Notes: a model not told the origin generated them from the letters alone. A DNA stretch of 64,000 nucleotides from an uncultured Porphyromonadaceae bacterium (GCA_947073495.1 CAMTMX010000003.1:9702-73701), one strand, 5' to 3'. Shown: positions 1,538-35,746, counted from the first letter of the stretch. Program-made: numbers and translations.

Positions 1538-2464
1538 TCAGACATCAAATTTCTTTCTTCTGAATACAAAGTTGCGACCAAGATATTTCTCACGCACCAC
1601 AGGATTCTCCGCAAGCTGTTCACTTGTGCCCTGAAACAGTATCTTTCCTTCAAAAAGCAGATATGCGCGGTCGGTGATGCTCAACGTCTCCGGCGCATTA
1701 TGGTCAGTTATAAGGATTCCTATATTTTTGGATTTTAATTTATAAACAATCTCCTGAATATCCTCCACTGCTATAGGATCGACACCGGCAAACGGTTCGT
1801 CGAGCATGATAAATTTAGGATTAATGGCGAGGCATCTGGCAATCTCTGTGCGTCGGCGTTCTCCACCCGACAGCTGATCGCCCAAATTCTTCCTGACCTT
1901 TCCAAGACGGAATTCCGCTATCAGGCTTTCCAGTTTTTCTTTCTGATATTCTTCTGTGGTAGGAGTCATCTCAAGAACGGCTCGGATATTGTCTTCCACA
2001 CTAAGTTTCCGGAACACGGAAGCTTCCTGGGCAAGATATCCAATGCCGAGCTGTGCGCGTTTATAGACCGGATAACCGGTAATGTCAACATTATTTAGAA
2101 AGATTCTTCCCTCATTCGGAGAGATGAGACCTGTGGTCATATAGAAAGTTGTGGTTTTCCCGGCACCATTCGGACCCAAAAGACCTACGATCTCCCCTTG
2201 ACGGACATTGATCGACACATGGTTTGCAACCGTACGCTTGCCATACTTTTTGACAAGATTATCTGTCTGGAGGATTCCGGTCTCAGGTTCTTCAATGCTT
2301 ATAGCTTCCAAAGACTCCATTCCATCTTGTTTCTCAGTCATCACTTCCGTGATATCTTTCTCAAGCATATCGGGCTCAGGTGCTGTCTCCATCTCCTTTG
2401 CCACTTTCTCCTCTTCAGGAGTAAGGGCACCCTTATCTTTCTTTTTGAATGAAAATATTTTCAT
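1538..2464 (-). CDS. lptB: LPS export ABC transporter ATP-binding protein LptB, with a roughly 65-aa acidic N-terminal extension
   Basis: Walker [10 protein letters not shown], signature LSGGERRR, Walker B FIMLDEP; LptB-like N-terminus [13 protein letters not shown] starts near residue 65. Confidence 0.88.
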
Positions 2465-2470
2465 AGCTTT

Positions 2471-3091
2471 TTATTTTGAACCGATTGGTAGTAGAGAACG
2501 GATATAATCCGTAAGCAACTTGATTGCCACATTATTGTTGCCACCTTGAGGCACAATAAGATCCGCATAGCGTTTCGACGGTTCAATATATAATTCATGC
2601 ATAGGCTTCAGCATCTCCCGATATCTGTCTATCACCATCTGAGGGGTTCTGTTGCGTTCCACACAGTCTCGCAAAATTACCCTGATCAATCTTTCGTCGG
2701 CATCAGCATCTACAAAAACCTTGACATCCATCATGTCGCGGAGCTCCTTGTCGGTCAATACGAGGATGCCCTCCACCACTACCACTTCTCTCGGCTTGAC
2801 AGTTACAGACTCTTTCAAACGGGAGCATGTGATAAAGTCATAGGTCGGCATCTCTATGGTCTCTCCGTTTTTCAAAGCTTTAAGATGCTGACACAAAAGA
2901 GTCCATTCTATCGACGCCGGTTCATCATAGTTCATCTTTAGCCTCTCTTCGAGAGGGATATGGGCATTATCCTTATAATAAGAATCCTGCGGAAGCACAG
3001 CCACTTCATCTTTAGGAAGCGACTCTATTATTTTTCTTACTACTGTTGTTTTGCCGGAACCAGTTCCTCCGGCTATGCCGATCACCAACAT
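2471..3091 (-). CDS. udk: Uridine kinase
   Basis: P-loop GIAGGTGSGKTT at the N-terminus; length and overall pattern typical of Udk. Confidence 0.92.
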   Translation of the reverse strand: MLVIGIAGGTGSGKTTVVRKIIESLPKDEVAVLPQDSYYKDNAHIPLEERLKMNYDEPASIEWTLLCQHLKALKNGETIEMPTYDFITCSRLKESVTVKPREVVVVEGILVLTDKELRDMMDVKVFVDADADERLIRVILRDCVERNRTPQMVIDRYREMLKPMHELYIEPSKRYADLIVPQGGNNNVAIKLLTDYIRSLLPIGSK

Positions 3092-3268
3092 GATAAATCT
3101 AAATTATTTAAGTTTCGCGAGCTCCCTTAAGGCTTGAAGGTTAAGAAGTTAAAGGGTATATTTATACATAATGCTTAAGAAAACCGGATATCTATCCACA
3201 ATTGGAGATTAACCTTTTAACCTATTAACTTCATAACCCTCAACTTTCGCAAGCGAAAGTTGAATTAA
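3092..3268. repeat. Dispersed intergenic repeat, copy E2, ending in palindrome 3240-3263
   Basis: Paralogous to 1367-1534. It also starts immediately at the ATG of a minus-strand gene (udk). Confidence 0.8.
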
Positions 3269-3285
3269 ATTATTAAGGTTGTAGA

Positions 3286-3330
3286 GACCAAAGACCTCCG
3301 ACCAAAGACCAAAGACCTTCGACCGACAAA
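3286..3330 (+). repeat. Short tandem ccaaagacc reiterations (tail module shared with 25697-25718)
   Basis: gaccaaagacctccgaccaaagaccaaagaccttcgaccgacaaa; 19 of 22 positions match ccaaagaccatcaaccggcaaa at 25697-25718. Confidence 0.6.
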
Positions 3331-3452
3331 ATTACGAAAAAAACATCAACACACCAAACTTTCCCCCTGCGACAGTGTGTTAATAAAGTTATCTGAATGA
3401 CCGAATATTTATCCACTTTTTCTTATTGCAACTCATTTTGGATTATTTTTAT

Positions 3453-3460
3453 TAATTTTG
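3453..3460 (+). promoter_or_regulatory. Bacteroides-type -7 box TAATTTTG upstream of mlaE
   Basis: Matches the TAnnTTTG consensus of the Bacteroides primary sigma factor; lies 69 nt upstream of the start codon. Confidence 0.4.
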
Positions 3461-3528
3461 CAATGTAAAAGGTTCTTCCTTTCCATTTCCTTCTCTCCGG
3501 AAAATGAAATTATATCTAAATTTAAAGT

Positions 3529-4275
3529 ATGATTGTTTCTTCTATTGCCTCCTTCGGACGCTATTGCCTTTTTATGGGTCAGGTGTTCAGGAAGCCTGAA
3601 AAATGGAAAGTTTTTTTCCAACGTCTTGTATTGGAAATCAGCAAACTTGGGGTAGACTCAATACCCCTTGTCATAATCATCTCTCTAGTTATCGGAGCAG
3701 TGATCACCATACAGATGGTGATCAATACTGTGTCACCACTAATCCCGTCTTACTCCACCGGACTTGCGACGAGAGAAATCCTTCTTCTTGAGTTCTCATC
3801 TTCAATCATGAGCCTTATTCTTGCCGGAAAAGTGGGAAGCAATATCGCATCGGAAATAGGGACAATGAGGGTGACTGAACAAATAGATGCCATCGACATT
3901 ATGGGAATCAATTCCGCAAACTTCATAGTATTGCCTAAAATTGTGGGGTTTGTTTTGTTCGTTCCCGTGTTGTGTGTACTCTCCATGTTTATGGGGCTAC
4001 TCGGCGGATGGTTCATTTCAGAGTTCACTTCGATGATATCCGTTGAAAATTATGTATTCGGCATACAATCATTCTTTAATGAATGGTATGTATGGTATGG
4101 TATAATCAAAACTATAGTGTTTGCTTTTATAATCTCAAGCGTGGCTTCCTTTTTCGGTTATTTTGTAAAAGGAGGTTCCCTTGAAGTTGGCAAGGCAAGT
4201 ACAAATGCTGTCGTTTCGAGTTCAATTATAATCCTTCTTGCAGATGTCTTGCTGACAAAGATGCTGTTGCAATAA
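3529..4275 (+). CDS. mlaE: MlaE-family ABC transporter permease
   Basis: Family-typical stretch GKVGSNIASEIGTMRVTEQIDAIDIMGINS and a 5-6 TM pattern. Confidence 0.88.
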   Translation: MIVSSIASFGRYCLFMGQVFRKPEKWKVFFQRLVLEISKLGVDSIPLVIIISLVIGAVITIQMVINTVSPLIPSYSTGLATREILLLEFSSSIMSLILAGKVGSNIASEIGTMRVTEQIDAIDIMGINSANFIVLPKIVGFVLFVPVLCVLSMFMGLLGGWFISEFTSMISVENYVFGIQSFFNEWYVWYGIIKTIVFAFIISSVASFFGYFVKGGSLEVGKASTNAVVSSSIIILLADVLLTKMLLQ

Positions 4276-4336
4276 TCCGGATTATTAATCAAGAATCTTT
4301 GGTTCATTTGGAATCTTACGACAAATACAAACCAAT

Positions 4337-4390
4337 CTTATGAGTGGTGAGAACGAAGTGAGCACAACCATCTGCCAAACACCAAAAGAC
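4337..4390 (+). repeat. Dispersed intergenic motif, copy M1 (TGAGTGGTGAGAACGAAGTGAGCACAACC...)
   Basis: The core is shared with 11184-11244 and 25659-25718. This copy sits in the 122-nt gap between mlaE and mlaF. Confidence 0.75.
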
Positions 4391-4397
4391 AAAAAAA

Positions 4398-5180
4398 ATG
4401 ATTGAAGCTAAAAATATATCGAAATGGTTTGACGGGCAACGTATCCTATATGATATCTCGGCAACTTTCGACACCGGAAAAACAAACCTTATAATCGGAC
4501 AAAGCGGCTCCGGAAAGACCGTGTTCATGAAATGTCTTATCGGGCTGTTAACTCCGGAAGAAGGCTCTATACTGTATGACGGTCGCAAATTCCGCGAGAT
4601 GTCGGAACAACAGAAAAGAGCCCTGAGAACTGAAATCGGAGTCCTTTTCCAAGGATCCGCCCTCTTCGACAACGAAACCGTGCTTGGGAATGTAATGTTC
4701 CCGCTAAAAATGTTCAGTCCGATGAGTCATGAAGAACAGCTTGAAAGGGCACATTTCTGTATCAAACGTGTTGGGCTCACGAATGCCGACGACAAATATC
4801 CTTCCGAGATTTCGGGCGGTATGCAGAAGCGTGTAGCTATCGCGAGAGCCATAGCATTAAACCCCAAATACCTTTTCTGCGACGAACCAAACTCCGGCCT
4901 TGATCCTCGCACCTCAATTCTTATTGATGAATTGCTTAGCGACATTACTCATGAGTATGGAATAACGACCATAATCAATACCCATGACATGAACTCTGTG
5001 TTAGGGATCGGTGAGAAAATTGTTTTTATCAATAAAGGGCACTGCGATTGGATAGGCACAGACAAAACAATATTCAAAAGCAAGAGCCAATCCCTCAACG
5101 ACTTCGTATTCGCATCTAAACTATTCCAGGAAGTAAAGAAATTTTTAGAGAGGGAATATGAGGCTGAGGAAGATGTCTGA
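4398..5180 (+). CDS. MlaF-like ABC transporter ATP-binding protein
   Basis: GQSGSGKT, ISGGMQKRVAIARA, LFCDEP; directly downstream of the MlaE-like permease. Confidence 0.88.
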   Translation: MIEAKNISKWFDGQRILYDISATFDTGKTNLIIGQSGSGKTVFMKCLIGLLTPEEGSILYDGRKFREMSEQQKRALRTEIGVLFQGSALFDNETVLGNVMFPLKMFSPMSHEEQLERAHFCIKRVGLTNADDKYPSEISGGMQKRVAIARAIALNPKYLFCDEPNSGLDPRTSILIDELLSDITHEYGITTIINTHDMNSVLGIGEKIVFINKGHCDWIGTDKTIFKSKSQSLNDFVFASKLFQEVKKFLEREYEAEEDV

Positions 5181-9297: not shown

Positions 9298-10140
9298 ATG
9301 AAAACATTTAAACCATTTCATTCTCTATTCTTTACCATATCCCTCCTTTTTGCCTCTGAAATCGGTGCGACTTCCCCAAAATATCTTGCATTGGTAGATT
9401 CTGCTGACAATTTCATAAAAAAGGAACAATGGATGCAGGCGGAACACACTATAATCTCCGCTCTCAGGTTGGAACCGGCGAACTACACTAATTCTTTACT
9501 TTTCTCAAATCTCGGGGTTGTCCGCACTGAACAAGGAAAGTATAAGGATGCTCTTGAAGCTTTCTCACTTGGTCTATCAATCGCACCGGATTCAAAAGGA
9601 ATATTAAATAATCGCGCTCGTACTTTTATGCTCATGAACGACTACGATCGTGCCATGACAGATCTTTCAGAAAGCCTGCGCATAGATTCAATACAAGAAT
9701 GGACTCTTCAGATGAGAGGACTTTTGCGAATAAATGCCAAAGATACTGTCGGGGCAAGACATGACTTTCTTTTGCTTGCCAAAAATTTTCATCGAAACGA
9801 CCGGGCATTTGCAGGCCTCGCGAAAATATCGGAATGGGAGGGAAACTATGACGACGCTCTTAAATATTACAATGAGGCAATAATCATAAACGATGAGCCG
9901 GAAATCAGATCTGAGCGTATCATGTTGAAGATAAGAACAGATAAATACTCAGACGCTTCGCGAGATATTAAAGAAAGTATCGAGAAGTATCCACAGGAGC
10001 CTGTTTTTTATCTTTTGAGAGGACATCTCCATCGACTAAACTATCGTTATGACGAAGCGGAAGCTGATAAAAAAATTGCAATCAACAAAGGGGCTGACCC
10101 ACAAATCGTTGAACGTTTTATCCCCAAAAGCGGTAAATAA
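9298..10140 (+). CDS. TPR-repeat protein with signal peptide
   Basis: Repeated A/Y/L-rich 34-aa-like units (for example YDDALKYYNEAIIIN). The ATG at 9298 is preferred over the TTG at 9283. Confidence 0.65.
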   Translation: MKTFKPFHSLFFTISLLFASEIGATSPKYLALVDSADNFIKKEQWMQAEHTIISALRLEPANYTNSLLFSNLGVVRTEQGKYKDALEAFSLGLSIAPDSKGILNNRARTFMLMNDYDRAMTDLSESLRIDSIQEWTLQMRGLLRINAKDTVGARHDFLLLAKNFHRNDRAFAGLAKISEWEGNYDDALKYYNEAIIINDEPEIRSERIMLKIRTDKYSDASRDIKESIEKYPQEPVFYLLRGHLHRLNYRYDEAEADKKIAINKGADPQIVERFIPKSGK

Positions 10141-10179
10141 ATTCATATTTTTTTGATTCATCGATATAAAAAAATTTAC

Positions 10180-10187
10180 TAACTTTG
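10180..10187 (+). promoter_or_regulatory. Bacteroides-type -7 box TAACTTTG
   Basis: TAnnTTTG match 39 nt upstream of the 10226 start. Confidence 0.4.
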
Positions 10188-10225
10188 CACTCGCAAAATC
10201 ACCGATAAGGTATTATTATTGCATC

Positions 10226-11170
10226 ATGAATTTCTTTTTCCAACATATCGAATATCTTTTGCTCCGTCACGATTGTGTTATTGTTCCGGGGCTTGGTGCG
10301 TTTATTGCAACCACGGCACCTGCAAAGATCGATATGGAGAAAGGGATACTGACCCCCTCATATCGCGCTCTGATGTTCAATCAGGCTGTATCACTCGATG
10401 ATGGGCTGTTAGCTAATTCTATAGCGCGCAAAGCCGGTATCTCTTTTGAAGATGCACGCAATGCTATTGTCCGGTGCGTCTCAACAATCAAAGATATAAT
10501 TAAGACACAAGGGTTAGTAAAGATTGGCTCGCTGGGATTTTTACAACTTGGTGAAGAAAACAATCTTATCTTTTCTCCGGCTAAATCAGATGTGGCTTCA
10601 TACGAAGAGTTGGGCTATCACACCATTCATCTCAACACTGAATCCGTAATTGACAATAATGTATCCATAGCGGATGAAGTTATTAATCCTGATAATAGTT
10701 ATTATCAATTTAAAATCAGCAAAACTTTCACCCGGATTGCTGCAATGATTGCTGTGATGGTTGTCGTAGCTTTAACAGTAATTCTAAATCCGTTGCCGGC
10801 AGATAACCGTGAACAGCGTGCATCAGTAGTTCCTGTTGAGAAAATTCTTCCAGCTTCAACTGAAAAATCCCGTCAAGAGACAACAGCTATTTGCCCTGAA
10901 TCTGAAGAGACAGACGTGATAGCTGAAGAAATTGCAGAAACTTCACCGATACACTATCTCATCGTCGCTACGTTCAGCAATTGTAAAGAAGCGGAAGCAT
11001 ACGCTGAAAAATATTCTACGGAAGAGTTTCCTCTCGCAGCAGTGGAATCACGCAAAATGACACGTGTGGCTGTTGCCCGATCCAACGATCGTGAAGAGAT
11101 GAGAAAGCGCCTCAACTCATCTGCAATTTCCAAACGCTTCCCAAACGCCTGGATCTGGACAACTAACTGA
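10226..11170 (+). CDS. HU-like domain / SPOR domain protein
   Basis: N-terminus HIEYLLLRHDCVIVPGLGAFI is typical of Bacteroidetes HU-CCDC81-like proteins; one TM helix; C-terminal SPOR-like YLIVATFSNCKEAEAY. Confidence 0.72.
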   Translation: MNFFFQHIEYLLLRHDCVIVPGLGAFIATTAPAKIDMEKGILTPSYRALMFNQAVSLDDGLLANSIARKAGISFEDARNAIVRCVSTIKDIIKTQGLVKIGSLGFLQLGEENNLIFSPAKSDVASYEELGYHTIHLNTESVIDNNVSIADEVINPDNSYYQFKISKTFTRIAAMIAVMVVVALTVILNPLPADNREQRASVVPVEKILPASTEKSRQETTAICPESEETDVIAEEIAETSPIHYLIVATFSNCKEAEAYAEKYSTEEFPLAAVESRKMTRVAVARSNDREEMRKRLNSSAISKRFPNAWIWTTN

Positions 11171-16934: not shown

Positions 16935-17173
16935 AATATAGATTCTTTAAAGTTAATACCTTTAGAAACTGTTTATATTTATTTGTCGAAGGAATTGAGA
17001 GGATTTGTCGAGCAGATTTTTGATATTATGATGGAGTTATGGGGTTCTATAATGACTGAATAAATATCATAAAGATGCCGACAAAGACCTCAATAACAAG
17101 ACAACATAATTTTAAAAAAGTTTCTAAAACTTGAAGAAGAAGATTAGAGGAACCAAACGAAATCAAGAGCAAT

Positions 17174-31635: not shown

Positions 31636-31992
31636 TTAATCATCGCAATAACCCGACTTATTACTTTTCACCTTTGACTCTTCCCTCTTCTTTCTCGCCG
31701 GATTAGCAGGGAACCATCCCTTCCTCACTCGCTCCACCTGCTCTGACACTTCCTTAATACTCCAAAAAGAACTAAACGAGGTAACTCCAAGAAGTGCCGA
31801 TGCCACAACTCCTTCGACGGCAAGCGAACCGGCAAGGGAAATGATGCCTGCTACTAAAAACCACCATTTAATCTTTTCTCCGAAATAATACTCACCCTTA
31901 ATTACAAGTGGATGATATATCCCTATAATTAAAAAAGTGCATAACCCGACGAAAAGACCTTCCAGCCTATATTCAGATAAAAATTCCAACAT
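31636..31992 (-). CDS. Small membrane protein, DUF4491-like
   Basis: Three TM helices. GIYHPLVIKGEYYFG resembles my recollection of Bacteroides DUF4491; not verified. Confidence 0.55.
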   Translation of the reverse strand: MLEFLSEYRLEGLFVGLCTFLIIGIYHPLVIKGEYYFGEKIKWWFLVAGIISLAGSLAVEGVVASALLGVTSFSSFWSIKEVSEQVERVRKGWFPANPARKKREESKVKSNKSGYCDD

Positions 31993-32543
31993 ATATTTTT
32001 CAATTTTAATTCAATTCGCAAATTTCGTAAAAATACTTCAAATCTCACCGTTCGTAAATGTTAATAAAACTTGATTAAACGCTTTATATCTTACCCTGTA
32101 TTGATCCCGCATCCATCTTTACAAAAACAAACTTATCTGAATAAAATAGAGGATAAATATCTCAGACACAAATCTGAAAGATTTATCCTCTCTGATAAAG
32201 CGGGATTTTGATTAGCGCAGCAAAATCAAGGACTATAACAATATCAAAAACCCGGATTTCCTGTCAAAAACAAGAACAGCCTCCGAACAGTCAAGTCATC
32301 ATAGGCATGGAGAGAGTAGACAAAATTGGAATCCGGTCAAGATCACCACACATAGAAGCGTGATGAGTTTCAATGTTATTTCTGCCACTTCCAGCAGCTA
32401 AAATCCTGAATGATGATAGCGCTAATCATTATCCCCTGAGACTTCAGTTCCTTAATCGGGAAACCGTTGCCATACCTTATCAATTTTTATAAGTTATTTC
32501 GAGGTAATGCTCAATTAAGCAATTGACCTCCATAAACCGTTAA

Positions 32544-33434
32544 CTACTTTTTACCGAGACTTGACACTTCTTCATATATCTTTTGAAGGGAGTCAGGAAT
32601 ACTTATACGCAATCCTGAAATATCTCTCACCTTACGTTGTATATATTCTGAATGTCGTGCCTCCAGAAGTTTCCTGTTGTTGGTCCAATCGGCTAACGCT
32701 TGGGAATATTCCGCTTTTGCCGCCACAGTCGATTCCTCTATCGCTTTCATACACTCATGTTTCATCGCGTTAAGATTTGCCTGTGCTTCGCGATATTGTT
32801 TTTGCAAACGAAAATATACATCTTCCACTGTTGCATCATCCACAGTTGGAGTATATGTGTAAATCAGAGTGTCACGCCCTTGACCTTCCACATGATGTGG
32901 CTTTTTAGCCTTTGATTGTAAATCTTTTCTGACATCTGCAAATTCGCCTCCGGGATGAATTGCCTTCCCGAGTGTAGAGGCAAGTGTCTCAAGAGAATAA
33001 TACTTACATCTTTCATCCTTAGACTTTGATGCAAAATATTCGTCTTCTGTCAATATGTCGCCAAGTTGTGGCTGTTCTTTCAATTCAATGCCATTAGCTT
33101 TTGCATAATCCACAAGGGTCATACCGGTTGCCTCGGATACCAGGCGTTCCTTCGCCTTTATAGCCTCCCGAAGCCACGCAATCAACGATTTCGCTTCCGC
33201 TATTCTGTGCAATTTTGTTACAACGCCCTCCACCTCTTCTGCATTGGCGCCCATATTCAAAATATTAGGATCCTTTCCCCCGATCAATGTGACAGTGGTG
33301 GAATATAATGACATCTCCTCAAGAGAGGTTTCTATATCGCTAATCATTTCTTTAGCGAGATTAGCCACATGGTTGGCGGAAGTAGAGGTTAGACCTTTAC
33401 CATCCTCTGAGAAAAATATCGTGTCCTTTTTCAT
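32544..33434 (-). CDS. Hypothetical 296-aa soluble, helix-rich protein co-transcribed with rtcB
   Basis: Long ORF 19 nt downstream of rtcB on the same strand; no signal peptide or TM; no motif I can assign; C-terminal third looks coiled-coil. Confidence 0.6.
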   Translation of the reverse strand: MKKDTIFFSEDGKGLTSTSANHVANLAKEMISDIETSLEEMSLYSTTVTLIGGKDPNILNMGANAEEVEGVVTKLHRIAEAKSLIAWLREAIKAKERLVSEATGMTLVDYAKANGIELKEQPQLGDILTEDEYFASKSKDERCKYYSLETLASTLGKAIHPGGEFADVRKDLQSKAKKPHHVEGQGRDTLIYTYTPTVDDATVEDVYFRLQKQYREAQANLNAMKHECMKAIEESTVAAKAEYSQALADWTNNRKLLEARHSEYIQRKVRDISGLRISIPDSLQKIYEEVSSLGKK

Positions 33435-33453
33435 AATTTTTGTTTCTTTTTAT

Positions 33454-34626
33454 TTATCCTTTTATCACGGCAATAGGATGCAAACAAGTGACTACTTTCA
33501 CCAAATCAGCCTGTGCCGCCATGACCTCATCAATATCTTTGTATGCACCGGCAGCTTCATCAAGATCTTCTTTATATCTAATGGCATGAATCACCCCTGC
33601 CCTTTCAAGTCGAGCCACTTCCTCTTCAAGGGAAAGCTCGTTGCGGGCTGCCGTACGCGAAAGCTTTCGTCCCGCTCCATGTGAACAAGACATGAATGAC
33701 TCCGGATTTCCCAACCCTTCCGTAATGTATGAACAAGTACCTTGAGACCCAGGAATGATACCTACCACACCCTTTCTCGCAAGGGTAGCACCTTTACGAT
33801 GAACTATACATGTTTCTCCGAAATGCTCCTCAAAAGCAGCATAGTTGTGTGCGATATTTATCATAGGTTCAAATTCAGCCCCGACTACCGCATCCTCTAT
33901 TACATCCATTACGCGTTGCATCATGAGCGAACGGTTGCACAAAGCAAACGCTACACAATATTCCATTTCATTCCAGTATTGACGGAATTCATCTGAACGC
34001 AAAGGCAAGAACGGCAAATGAATATCCGTTGGAACCATCGACCACCAACGTCGGTTGAGCACTTCAGCTTTTTCGTTATAATACTCACCCACCTGTTTCC
34101 CAAGATTACGGGAACCTGAATGGATCATGATCCACACCAACCCTTCTTCATCTTTCTGCAACTCTATGAAATGATTGCCTCCGCCGAGAGTACCTACCTG
34201 CTTCATTGCCGAATCAATCTGACGCGACACAACATTCATTGATCCTATTTCTAAACCTTGCGGCATATATTTCTCATCCTGTTTCTGTTTATGATGATCG
34301 CGTCCAAGCGGAATCTGTTTGCGGATTCCACGAAGTATTTGCTTGCGTATTATTTCATCTGTCAGATTTTCCACTCTTATATTTGTTTTTACGGCACACA
34401 TGCCACACCCGATATCAACCCCTACTGCGTTAGGGATAACAACATTTTTAGTGGCAAGCACTCCTCCTATTGGCATCCCTTTCCCTCCATGTGCATCAGG
34501 CATCAATGCAAGATGATGATGGATAAAAGGGAGCAGACAAAGATTTTCAACTTCTTTCTGTCCATGTTCATCCAATGAGGTTGCCCAATTTTTCACCACT
34601 ACATTATTAATAACTTTCACTTCCAT
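33454..34626 (-). CDS. rtcB: RNA 3-prime-phosphate/2-prime,3-prime-cyclic-phosphate ligase RtcB (short form, 390 aa)
   Basis: MPDAHGGKGMPIGGV, DIGCGM, HSGSRNLG, HRKGAT, GSQGTCSY and SCSHGAGR (nucleophilic His context). Confidence 0.92.
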   Translation of the reverse strand: MEVKVINNVVVKNWATSLDEHGQKEVENLCLLPFIHHHLALMPDAHGGKGMPIGGVLATKNVVIPNAVGVDIGCGMCAVKTNIRVENLTDEIIRKQILRGIRKQIPLGRDHHKQKQDEKYMPQGLEIGSMNVVSRQIDSAMKQVGTLGGGNHFIELQKDEEGLVWIMIHSGSRNLGKQVGEYYNEKAEVLNRRWWSMVPTDIHLPFLPLRSDEFRQYWNEMEYCVAFALCNRSLMMQRVMDVIEDAVVGAEFEPMINIAHNYAAFEEHFGETCIVHRKGATLARKGVVGIIPGSQGTCSYITEGLGNPESFMSCSHGAGRKLSRTAARNELSLEEEVARLERAGVIHAIRYKEDLDEAAGAYKDIDEVMAAQADLVKVVTCLHPIAVIKG

Positions 34627-34651
34627 AATCGTGTGTTTTTATTTTCTGGTG

Positions 34652-34659
34652 CAAAGTTC
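34652..34659 (-). promoter_or_regulatory. Near-consensus -7 box GAACTTTG for the rtcB operon
   Basis: Minus-strand GAACTTTG, 25 nt upstream of the rtcB ATG. Confidence 0.35.
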
Positions 34660-34664
34660 TGACA

Positions 34665-34691
34665 TGTCTACGCAATGATTTTGCGTAGACA
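34665..34691. promoter_or_regulatory. 11-5-11 perfect inverted repeat between the divergent rtcB and WYL promoters (candidate operator)
   Basis: tgtctacgcaa-tgatt-ttgcgtagaca, verified base by base; flanked by the -7 boxes at 34652-34659 (minus) and 34696-34703 (plus). Confidence 0.55.
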
Positions 34692-34695
34692 AAAA

Positions 34696-34703
34696 TATTT
34701 TTG
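34696..34703 (+). promoter_or_regulatory. Bacteroides-type -7 box TATTTTTG for the WYL regulator gene
   Basis: TAnnTTTG match 24 nt upstream of the ATG at 34727. Confidence 0.4.
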
Positions 34704-34726
34704 TAAATTAGCAAAAAATATTCTTG

Positions 34727-35746
34727 ATGGCACAAAATAAAAACGCTCTTTTACGCTATCGTACCATTGACCGTTGCCTGCGCAACACCGGTAGACGCTG
34801 GACTCTGCAAGATCTGGTAGATGCCTGCAGCGATGCTCTTTATGAATATGAAGGGAAACAAGATTTGGTGAGCACTCGTACGGTTCAGCTTGACATTCAA
34901 ATGATGCGTTCCGACCGATTGGGATATGAGGCTCCTATTGAAGTATACGACCGCAAGTACTACCGTTATTCCGATCCTGATTATTCTATCAGCAACCGCC
35001 CTCTATCAGAACACGATATTAATGTGCTTAACCGTACAATAGACCTACTACGGCAATTTGACGAATTTGATCCGTTCCACGATATGGCTGATGTAGTGGG
35101 CAGACTCCAGGATAAGGTAGCTAATGCCAACAATAAAAGATCTATCGTAGATTTTGAACGCAATCCAAACCTCAAAGGGCTTGAGCATCTTAATCATTTA
35201 TATGATATCATCTCGGCACGGCAAACAGTCTATATTAATTATCGCTCGTTTAATTCACGCGAACCGCGTCCTTTCATTCTATTCCCTCATTTATTAAAAG
35301 AATACCGCAACCGCTGGTTTTTATTCGGCTCGCGTGCCGGAGATATGAAACTCTTCAATCTCGCTCTCGACCGCATAATTGATTTTCATTCATGCCCAGA
35401 CATACCTTATAAAGAGAATCCGGATTTTGATGAAAATTATTTCAATGATATTGTTGGAGTGACAAAACATCCGAGACTGAATAAAGAGAATGTGATCATA
35501 CTTGCCGATAATTCACAGGCAAGCTATATTCTTACAAAACCCATTCATTCTTCACAAAAGCTTTTGGAAAAGAACCATTCAGACGGATCAATGACATTTG
35601 AATTGAATGTAGTGGTAAACCAGGAATTGATAACACAACTATTAGGATTCGGCTCCGGGATCCGAATCCTCTCCCCCACATCGCTGGTCACCAAAATGCG
35701 CGACATACTCCTAAAAGCCTACGCCCAATACAAAAATAAAACATAA
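34727..35746 (+). CDS. wHTH-WYL-domain transcriptional regulator
   Basis: N-terminal HTH-like NALLRYRTIDRCL...WTLQDL...VSTRTVQLDIQMMR; WYL-type motif in EYRNRWFLFGSR; length about 340 aa, typical of the family. Confidence 0.8.
   Translation: MAQNKNALLRYRTIDRCLRNTGRRWTLQDLVDACSDALYEYEGKQDLVSTRTVQLDIQMMRSDRLGYEAPIEVYDRKYYRYSDPDYSISNRPLSEHDINVLNRTIDLLRQFDEFDPFHDMADVVGRLQDKVANANNKRSIVDFERNPNLKGLEHLNHLYDIISARQTVYINYRSFNSREPRPFILFPHLLKEYRNRWFLFGSRAGDMKLFNLALDRIIDFHSCPDIPYKENPDFDENYFNDIVGVTKHPRLNKENVIILADNSQASYILTKPIHSSQKLLEKNHSDGSMTFELNVVVNQELITQLLGFGSGIRILSPTSLVTKMRDILLKAYAQYKNKT

Follow-up and report, generated by a model that had tools for sequence, protein, structure and literature searches.

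What does an undescribed protein work with when its gene directly follows that of an RNA ligase: the ligase, or something else? The question is raised by a 64,000-nucleotide (nt) stretch of DNA from an uncultured Porphyromonadaceae bacterium (GCA_947073495.1 CAMTMX010000003.1:9702-73701; hereafter the window, meaning the whole stretch), in which the RNA ligase gene rtcB is followed by a gene for a 296-amino acid (aa) protein, here called X296, and is headed by a divergently transcribed WYL-domain regulator. An earlier reading of this DNA, made from the sequence alone, had proposed a role for the 296-aa protein as a new accessory factor of RtcB. Comparison of loci from bacteria and phages indicates instead that the constant partner of X296, in both, is a structured RNA encoded just downstream of it, and not RtcB. 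We consider it reasonably probable that window positions 32140-35746 form a ligand-gated RNA-damage-response operon, the accessory part of which is a new pair of X296 and this RNA, a probable ribonucleoprotein (RNP).

X296 is encoded on the minus strand at 32544-33434, and the open reading frame (ORF) list confirms that it starts 19 nt after the stop codon of rtcB (33454-34626, minus strand) in the same orientation, as the sequence-only reading had noted. The same gene order recurs in several independent sequencing runs, on 21 contigs or more, so that the arrangement is real and no assembly artefact, and it is fixed in the window species, to judge from its closest relatives a member of the Muribaculaceae. 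This close, co-oriented placement behind one promoter is what would be expected if X296 were a dedicated RtcB accessory acting on or with the ligase, with rtcB and X296 forming a functional unit; archease and PrfH are likewise encoded beside rtcB, and X296 also adjoins a second RtcB clade in three metagenome loci (L093, L094 and L099 in our numbering) and in one phage contig (L240). However, X296 has no sequence or fold similarity to archease or PrfH, and its linkage to rtcB is inconsistent. In a set comprising one X296 locus per species (80 species, searched with the window proteins), RtcB was found within ±6 kb of X296 in none of the 80 loci, and it is also missing from 79 of 80 phage loci; X296 is thus no regular RtcB partner. 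Conversely, some 25-30 loci with a divergent WYL-rtcB pair lack X296, in the nearest relative of the window (L001) the corresponding site holds X296 but no rtcB, and it is the RNA, not RtcB, that constantly accompanies X296. An accessory dedicated to RtcB is therefore very improbable, and the earlier proposal, which had been tied to conserved linkage of the two genes elsewhere, does not survive these co-occurrence counts.

The RNA lies in the gap downstream of X296 (551 bp, 31993-32543). The sequence-only reading had remarked on an unusual 550-bp ORF-free gap, and rightly so insofar as no ORF of note is present, but the gap is not empty. Comparison of the 551 bp with the fetched loci by blastn revealed that over 40 species have a segment of ~70-120 nt, 75-92% conserved, after X296, and that it is kept even where the X296 proteins are only ~55% identical. 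Iterated nhmmer searches yielded 86 copies, always on the X296 strand. RNAalifold found no structure in a raw MAFFT alignment of 81 such elements, because a variable 5' linker misaligns the closing helix (P1), and after local re-alignment it recovered an inner hairpin (P2) only. As alignment-wide folding had failed, the structure was set by hand on a 14-sequence MAFFT seed and tested with a covariance model (R1). The window element thus delimited by blastn, nhmmer and the covariance model is a conserved structured RNA of ~125 nt at 32214-32339 on the minus strand, scoring 119.8 bits with R1. P1 is a closing helix of 10 bp (CCGGnnnnnn/nnnnnnCCGG), P2 carries the invariant UGAnGACUUGAnUGUUCGGAGG (UGAnGACUUGA...UCGGAGG), and unpaired 6-nt repeats (GnUnUn) follow one another, about three within the P1 loop and about five after P1.

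Searches with R1 detected the RNA in 77 of 88 bacterial X296 sources and in 73 of 80 phage X296 loci, whose proteins are 27-45% identical; in 78 WYL and/or RtcB loci without X296 (517 kb), by contrast, there were 0 matches, even at E ≤ 1. The complete 98.6-kb phage genome PQ006092.1 contains one RNA, 117 nt after its X296 homologue. The phage sequences were not used for building R1, and the phage-only alignment supports the structure as well as the bacterial one does: 91.6% and 89.4% of the cells, respectively, are paired over the whole structure, and 93.9% and 91.8% over P1. Covariation, counted on these model-fitted alignments, was 0.449 in bacteria versus 0.126 after shuffling (0 of 500 shuffles reached the observed value) and at most 0.098 with slid partners, and in phages 0.644 versus 0.127 and at most 0.077. 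All 10 pairs of P1 show compensatory changes, both in bacteria (up to five pair types per position) and in phages. Cells with G-U outnumber those with A-C by 104:32 in bacteria and 23:2 in phages; this excess, together with the fixed orientation, identifies the RNA as the X296-sense strand. Against Rfam 15 the element gave only chance-level matches, even at E ≤ 10.

In bacteria the RNA begins at a median of 170 nt (128-418) past the X296 stop codon, in phages at 134 nt (97-164). Upstream of it there is no enrichment of TAnnTTTG, the established -7 promoter consensus of Bacteroides and Bacteroidetes (3 matches in 42 loci), so that the RNA is probably co-transcribed with X296 and may then be processed. 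The same observations, namely a constant strand, a position 97-418 nt past the stop codon and no enriched promoter motif, could also mean that the RNA is a cis-acting 3'-untranslated region element of the X296 mRNA, involved in stability, processing, termination or autoregulation, and that X296 works as a protein alone; its acidic character and the absence of a recognized RNA-binding domain would agree with this. Yet the RNA is kept from bacteria to phages at protein identities down to ~27-35%, which would be unusual for a stabilizing hairpin, and it possesses an invariant inner hairpin resembling a protein site as well as the 6-nt repeats. In L093, L094, L099 and L240 it lies inside the operon, between X296 and rtcB, and autoregulatory binding by X296 would in any case still make a protein-RNA pair. 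We accordingly hold a purely cis-acting element to be unlikely, and continue with the reading that the RNA is the partner of X296.

X296 itself represents an undescribed family, without a match in Pfam, NCBIfam, PADLOC or PHROG, and 45 diverse members scanned singly against Pfam and PHROGs likewise belonged to no family; coiled-coil matches (ATG17_like, V-SNARE and others) were scattered over at most 3 of the 45 members and were dismissed as noise. A profile of the family matched nothing among PDB sequences at E ≤ 1. Homologues number 1446 at 90% clustering and 1021 clusters at 50% identity, and almost all have a single domain and a length of about 290-300 aa. The AlphaFold2 model (predicted local distance difference test 90.1, predicted template modeling score 0.58) is mostly helical with four short strands, and includes helices of 74 (residues 200-273) and 33 residues (71-103). 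The sequence-only reading had called the protein helix-rich and of no known family, and both descriptions hold; the Foldseek comparison of the model that it suggested turned up nothing in the PDB beyond long-helix look-alikes (ClyA, F-BAR), which at E > 0.02 and template modeling scores below 0.33 were rejected as coiled-coil artefacts. Against BFVD, Foldseek retrieved one unannotated phage homologue (E 1.6e-11). Two motifs, GLTSTSANHxANxAKE (residues 14-29) at the N-terminus and LIAWLREAIKA (84-94, also written LIAWLREAIKAK), are near-invariant from bacteria to phages, and H160, G163, R215 and N222 are likewise nearly invariant.

If X296 is not tied to RtcB by a general partnership, regulation may connect them. 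The identity of the ligase is firm: the 390-aa protein matches the Pfam model RtcB (PF01139) at 1.5e-111 over model positions 2-426 of 426 and RtcB chains of the PDB at E about 1e-40, and its translation contains DAHGGKG and SCSHGAGR, which, judged by eye against the established RtcB motifs, comprise the catalytic histidine (the guanylylation site) and metal-binding residues. We assign it by family as an RNA 3'-phosphate/5'-OH ligase, which upholds the earlier identification from HGGKG and SCSHGAGR; its score falls below the NCBIfam equivalog cut-offs for both E. coli-type and PrfH-linked RtcB. The regulator is a WYL-WCX protein of 339 aa with a putative N-terminal winged helix-turn-helix (wHTH), encoded on the plus strand at 34727-35746. 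The ORF list begins it at a TTG (34724-35746), but alignment of orthologues, which start at MAQNKNALL and are 73-96% identical to the window protein, agrees with independent gene calls (339 aa) on the ATG at 34727. Pfam recognizes WYL (PF13280, 7.4e-9, residues 154-219) and WCX (PF25583, 6.8e-11, residues 255-332), whereas no Pfam HTH matches the N-terminus at E ≤ 0.1; the first 100 residues are the best-conserved part of the family.

Between the two genes lies a perfect 11-5-11 palindrome read in the sequence, TGTCTACGCAA-TGATT-TTGCGTAGACA (34665-34691), with the 15-bp core CGCAA-N5-TTGCG at 34671-34685; no further copy occurs in the 64-kb window. The divergent regulator and the palindrome across which it is transcribed are thus as the sequence-only reading had described them. 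A WYL alignment scan of metagenomes provided 80 loci, of which 74 were informative for the divergent partner and the operator. The partner is RtcB in 25 of these and X296 in 7. The core is found upstream of WYL in 62 of the 74, mostly at -52 to -62, including 24 of the 25 loci with rtcB as partner and all 7 with X296, from which we conclude by sequence comparison that the palindrome is the conserved operator of this WYL family. In ~25-30 other loci a WYL orthologue (52-83% identity) forms a divergent pair with rtcB; RtcB orthologues of 75-83% identity stand opposite a WYL-WCX gene for 337-340 aa, and the chromosomal contexts are unrelated. On these comparisons the WYL-rtcB arrangement is a conserved divergent pair in Bacteroidales, and control of rtcB by a divergent WYL protein in place of RtcR, as had been read from the single locus, is a conserved design with the same operator.

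The placement of the palindrome is suggestive of how control would be exerted. A putative -7 box for the WYL gene, TATTTTTG (34696-34703, plus strand, assigned by eye), lies 5 nt past the palindrome and 24 nt before the ATG, and a putative -7 box for the rtcB-X296-RNA transcript, GAACTTTG, is predicted at 34652-34659 on the minus strand; both were assigned against the TAnnTTTG consensus. The layout of operator, ~11-14 nt and (T/G)AnnTTTG recurs before rtcB and X296 in other species. The operator thus appears to sit between back-to-back -7 boxes, where a bound dimer would cover both -33 regions, and a WYL dimer on the palindrome should silence its own gene as well as the operon.

What else this regulator family accompanies points to RNA repair. 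According to a Pfam scan, recurrent neighbors of WYL include RlaP nucleotidyltransferases (PF10127, 'RNA repair pathway DNA polymerase beta family'), a Thg1-like 3'-5' polymerase together with an AAA_33 kinase, and an RNase_T-type exonuclease, and a Ro60 (TROVE-vWA) gene lies downstream of rtcB in L127 and L134. With such neighbors the family looks like a regulator of RNA repair. A further recurrent cargo is a protein of 746-773 aa (for example 754 aa), in which Prok-RING_4 is matched weakly (23 bits against a cut-off of 27). Its gene is divergent from WYL in L100-L105, L137, L141, L156, L157 and L162 and lies downstream of rtcB in L118, L129, L131 and L139, sometimes with WYL divergent from an rtcB-first pair of the two. 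For some CARF/WYL transcription factors, recognition of RNAs that end in a cyclic phosphate and control of RNA-repair pathways have been predicted (PMC9503650, citing Makarova 2014; see also PMC7824862), and the present loci resemble that proposal, in which WYL factors sense RNA fragments and control RNA repair, also in the recurrence of RlaP, Thg1 and Ro. Since WYL/CARF control of RNA repair has already been proposed, a WYL protein instead of RtcR is no new principle; WYL-rtcB is a well-defined new member of an already predicted class of regulation. We found no description of the Bacteroidales WYL-RtcB pair, the operator, X296 or the RNA in the searchable literature, which did not cover the key 2016 comparative-genomics paper.

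X296 belongs to the same regulatory circle. WYL adjoins it in 7 of the 80 species loci and in 7 metagenome loci; beyond L001, divergent WYL-X296 arrangements are those of L007, L010, L013, L016, L070 and L077 and, among metagenomes, of L090 and L093-L099. When ORFs were clustered across the 80 X296 loci, WYL was the sole conserved neighbor, no other family occurring in more than 7 of the 80. WYL proteins on the rtcB side and on the X296 side are equally close to that of the window (73-79% identity). In 26 of 74 species loci the 250 bp preceding X296 contain the operator core with at most one mismatch, compared with ~1.6 loci expected from a background of 0.02 per 250 bp; the core is nearly always situated at -53 to -73 and is followed by a -7 box. 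Nineteen of these 26 loci have no adjacent WYL gene, which argues for regulation in trans. Variant palindromes are also seen upstream of X296, for example CGCAG-N5-CTGCG in L019 and L020. The co-occurrence of X296 and WYL, for which the sequence-only reading suggested neighborhood statistics, is hence borne out in part: adjacency (7/80) and operator (26/74) support it, while 73 of 80 loci have no WYL beside X296. By these sequence criteria X296 is a recurrent member of the WYL regulon.

Association with RNA-repair genes has also arisen independently elsewhere. In the metagenome loci L093, L094 and L099 a divergent WYL gene is followed by X296, the RNA and a second type of RtcB (RtcB418), and phage contig L240 has the order X296-RNA-RtcB418; a Thg1-like gene lies downstream of X296 in L070. 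The RtcB418 clade comprises proteins of 407-418 aa, ~30% identical to window RtcB (L093 1379-2635, minus strand; L240 7642-8865, plus strand). Judging from these loci, the link between X296-RNA and RNA repair is one of shared regulation and recurrent but rare fusion, with no obligate partnership. How the fusion in the window arose is suggested by L001, its closest relative (WYL 96% and X296 92% identical). There, the WYL gene, the palindrome and the leader '...AAAATAAAAACACACGATT-ATG' lead straight into X296, and window positions 33456-34620, essentially the rtcB ORF, are missing. On the parsimonious reading, rtcB is a cassette-like addition between the shared promoter and leader and X296 in the window species.

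In the mechanism that we propose, a WYL dimer on the operator would repress its own gene and the unit of rtcB, X296 and RNA, until the WYL domain binds a nucleic-acid ligand and the repressor is released. The ligand expected by analogy with other WYL and CARF regulators is RNA that has been damaged or cleaved, or a single-stranded nucleic acid. The derepressed minus-strand unit, containing rtcB, X296 and the ~125-nt RNA, would be transcribed as one; RtcB would reseal 2',3'-cyclic-phosphate or 3'-phosphate ends to 5'-OH ends, and X296 and the RNA would form an RNP, a scaffold or cofactor that assists, targets or senses in the RNA-damage response of RtcB. Such an RNP in this response is, by analogy, the most likely role of the pair. 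The locus would descend from two ancestral units, a divergent WYL-rtcB pair and X296 with its RNA under the same operator, beside WYL or elsewhere in the genome, which would have been fused in the window species by placement of an rtcB cassette between the shared promoter and leader and X296.

The closest conceptual precedent is the Salmonella rsr-yrlBA-rtcBA operon, which encodes Ro60, Y RNAs, RtcB and RtcA under the control of RtcR (Hughes et al. 2020, PMC7790460). Both systems combine a divergent ligand-sensing regulator (ligand sensing being a prediction for the window protein), RtcB, a non-enzymatic protein and an adjacent structured noncoding RNA. The protein-RNA-rtcB order of Salmonella is matched by L093, L094, L099 and L240, whereas the window has rtcB before X296. 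The regulators also differ, a sigma70-type, repressor-like WYL protein here and a sigma54 activator with a CARF domain, RtcR, there, and no RtcA is encoded within ±4 kb of the window operon. Like Ro60, X296 constantly has a structured noncoding RNA with it (77/88 and 73/80) and is sometimes operonic with rtcB; unlike Ro60, it has neither a TROVE nor a vWA domain (Pfam on X296 and 45 members; Foldseek against the PDB), and no Rfam model, whether for Y RNA or another family, matches the window RNA. X296 and its RNA thus parallel Ro60 and Y RNA in concept, by analogy and not by homology.

As for the regulator, the presence of WYL and WCX domains, a gene divergent from its target and a palindrome in the shared promoter region are features held in common with BrxR, CapW, DriD and PafBC, and such a layout fits repression relieved by a nucleic-acid ligand. 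The relationship is distant: the PDB relatives of the window protein (DriD 8tp8, PafC) score between E about 1e-4 and 1e-2, and matches at about 1e-4 are confined to the WYL-WCX part. The cargo is also different, RNA repair in the present loci as opposed to bacteriophage exclusion (BREX), cyclic-oligonucleotide-based antiphage signaling (CBASS) and DNA-damage genes. Since DriD and PafBC are activators, repression by the window WYL protein is a predicted sign only.

A further possibility is that X296 and its RNA are a phage-derived conflict module, for defense, anti-defense, exclusion or in the manner of a toxin-antitoxin (TA) pair, and take no direct part in repair; the WYL protein would then be a general stress or infection sensor of mixed cargo, like BrxR and CapW, and the adjacency to rtcB a recombination by-product of two WYL-headed loci. 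The neighborhoods of X296 are indeed very variable, with WYL alone recurring, and the gene is common in phage contigs, surrounded by small early genes, with helicase, primase-like and nucleotide-metabolism genes close by; these replication and nucleotide-metabolism regions give no functional clue. The cargo of WYL includes a Ser/Thr kinase with leucine-rich repeats (LRRs) and an AbiEii-like AAA_21 ATPase, and the regulator matches the WYL models of PADLOC, one of which (PDLC01457) aligns with residues 17-321. Those models are generic, however, and are the only ones of PADLOC-DB 2.0 to match at the locus, window RtcB and X296 matching no defense-system model, so that the anti-phage function considered in the sequence-only reading gained no specific support. 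Moreover, the identifiable WYL cargo is mostly RNA repair (RtcB, RlaP, Thg1 with kinase, Ro60, exonuclease), and because phages carry RNA-repair genes of their own (PMC7824862), the occurrence of X296 in phages is no argument against a repair role. Type III TA systems such as ToxIN likewise pair a protein with an adjacent structured RNA in bacteria and phages, but their RNA is upstream and consists of 34-36-nt tandem repeats, whereas the present RNA is downstream, a single unit of ~120 nt with a 6-nt period and no tandem 30-40-nt array; X296, a long helical protein by the AlphaFold2 model and Foldseek, also lacks the fold of a ToxN/Kid-like endoribonuclease. On balance, a conflict module without a part in repair is unlikely, though it has a real chance of being correct.

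Several observations nevertheless weigh against the RNA-damage-response operon with an X296-RNA pair that we favor. In 73 of 80 X296 loci neither WYL nor a repair gene stands beside X296, and about two thirds of X296 loci have no operator recognizable at up to one mismatch. WYL has non-repair neighbors too, namely the Ser/Thr kinase with LRRs, the AAA_21 ATPase and DUF4468. X296 is acidic (isoelectric point 5.8), and neither Foldseek against the PDB nor Pfam or the PDB profile search recognized an RNA-binding or catalytic fold in it. That the indel is a gain in the window species, and not a loss in L001, is a parsimony argument from the other divergent WYL-X296 loci. Finally, covariation was counted on alignments fitted to the model, though compensatory changes are already visible in the MAFFT seed.

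Protein-RNA pairs are rare and have repeatedly proved mechanistically new, as with Ro and Y RNA, retrons, type III TA systems and obligate mobile element-guided activity (OMEGA) systems. Here, more than 1000 unannotated X296 clusters (at 50% identity) and a covarying RNA absent from Rfam travel together, and the module, which has no counterpart in Pfam, PHROGs, PADLOC, the PDB or Rfam, may turn out to represent a new class of RNP. A more specific version is possible, although we lean away from it: an unrecognized RNP class, widespread in gut Bacteroidales and their phages, that serves as an RNA-repair cofactor or scaffold or as a damage sensor, the repeats and the GGAGG hairpin contacting the protein or rRNA/tRNA and WYL sensing damaged RNA. 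RNA repair would then have a third kind of RNP, alongside Ro60-Y RNA and the SPFH/tRNA-like modules. As to bacterial RtcB, moreover, nearly all thorough work on its targets and induction concerns the RtcR system of Proteobacteria. The present locus, with its relatives, offers a second, experimentally tractable logic in which a repressor-like WYL factor, acting through a defined 15-bp operator core, would control RtcB, RlaP, Thg1-like, Ro60 and other genes in the dominant gut phylum, and the question of the WYL ligand becomes directly testable on an RNA-repair output.

Gene calls within ±4 kb of the operon are adh_short, HAL, esterase, WYL, RtcB, X296, DUF4491, CN_hydrolase and PAD_porph. None of RtcA, RtcR, archease, PrfH and Ro is among them, the first four having been searched for in this interval and not across the whole 64 kb; Ro, RlaP and Thg1 have no tblastn match anywhere in the 64-kb window, and no Rfam family, Y RNA included, reaches its gathering score there. 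The earlier statement that all known RtcB partners are missing from the window is therefore confirmed window-wide for Ro and Y RNA, and locally for RtcA, RtcR, archease and PrfH. Downstream of the RNA, a putative terminator at 32140-32191 (minus strand) consists of a hairpin with an 11-bp stem (32148-32191) followed by AUUUUAUU, as read from a blastn self-match and the sequence; a terminator scan did not call this hairpin, and its terminator role is our inference. Beyond it lies the gene of a DUF4491 membrane-like protein (31636-31992, minus strand; Pfam 1.1e-40), which is syntenic in L001 and not in other X296 loci, and thus probably stands outside the module.

Within the RNA, the 6-nt period is strict in bacteria and phages (window 32214-32290, minus strand: GUUUUU GUUUUU G... 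UUUUnG nUUUnG nUnUnG nUUUUG), and comparison with known protein-binding codes gave no match. In the inner hairpin, UGAUGA resembles a C box and GGAGG a Shine-Dalgarno sequence. Two small reading frames overlap the element, a 51-aa ORF with a TTG start on the opposite strand in the window (32208-32363, plus strand) and a coding sequence for a 58-aa 'hypothetical protein' in PQ006092.1 (88046-88222; L251 5933-6109, plus strand); given the covariation and the non-codon 6-nt periodicity, both are probably spurious. Among X296 loci, L071 is a short contig with two tandem paralogues (18-905 and 934-1791, 35-36% identical to the query), in which the RNA element was not detected at E ≤ 0.01. L059, L072 and L075 have X296 in bins labeled Methanobacteriaceae, Anaerovoracaceae or Oscillospiraceae, where it may be phage-borne or mis-binned.

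The surroundings of the WYL gene may have been rearranged or may contain an island. An intergenic dispersed repeat of ~185 nt is present in one copy in the window (16947-17139) and twice in L001, at 4702-4887, directly after the WYL gene, and at 10074-10254; pieces are found in L004, L058 and L086, that of L086 again just after a WYL gene. The repeat resembles a miniature inverted-repeat transposable element and may be a marker of rearrangement around the WYL locus. The ~25 kb beside WYL in the window (35747-60880) are non-syntenic with L001, in which positions 1592-4711 correspond to window 63999-60880, and in part of this segment G+C is lower, at 0.33-0.40, and the GC skew is reversed relative to the first half of the window. 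The immediate neighbors of WYL, the esterase and HAL genes, are native to the window species.

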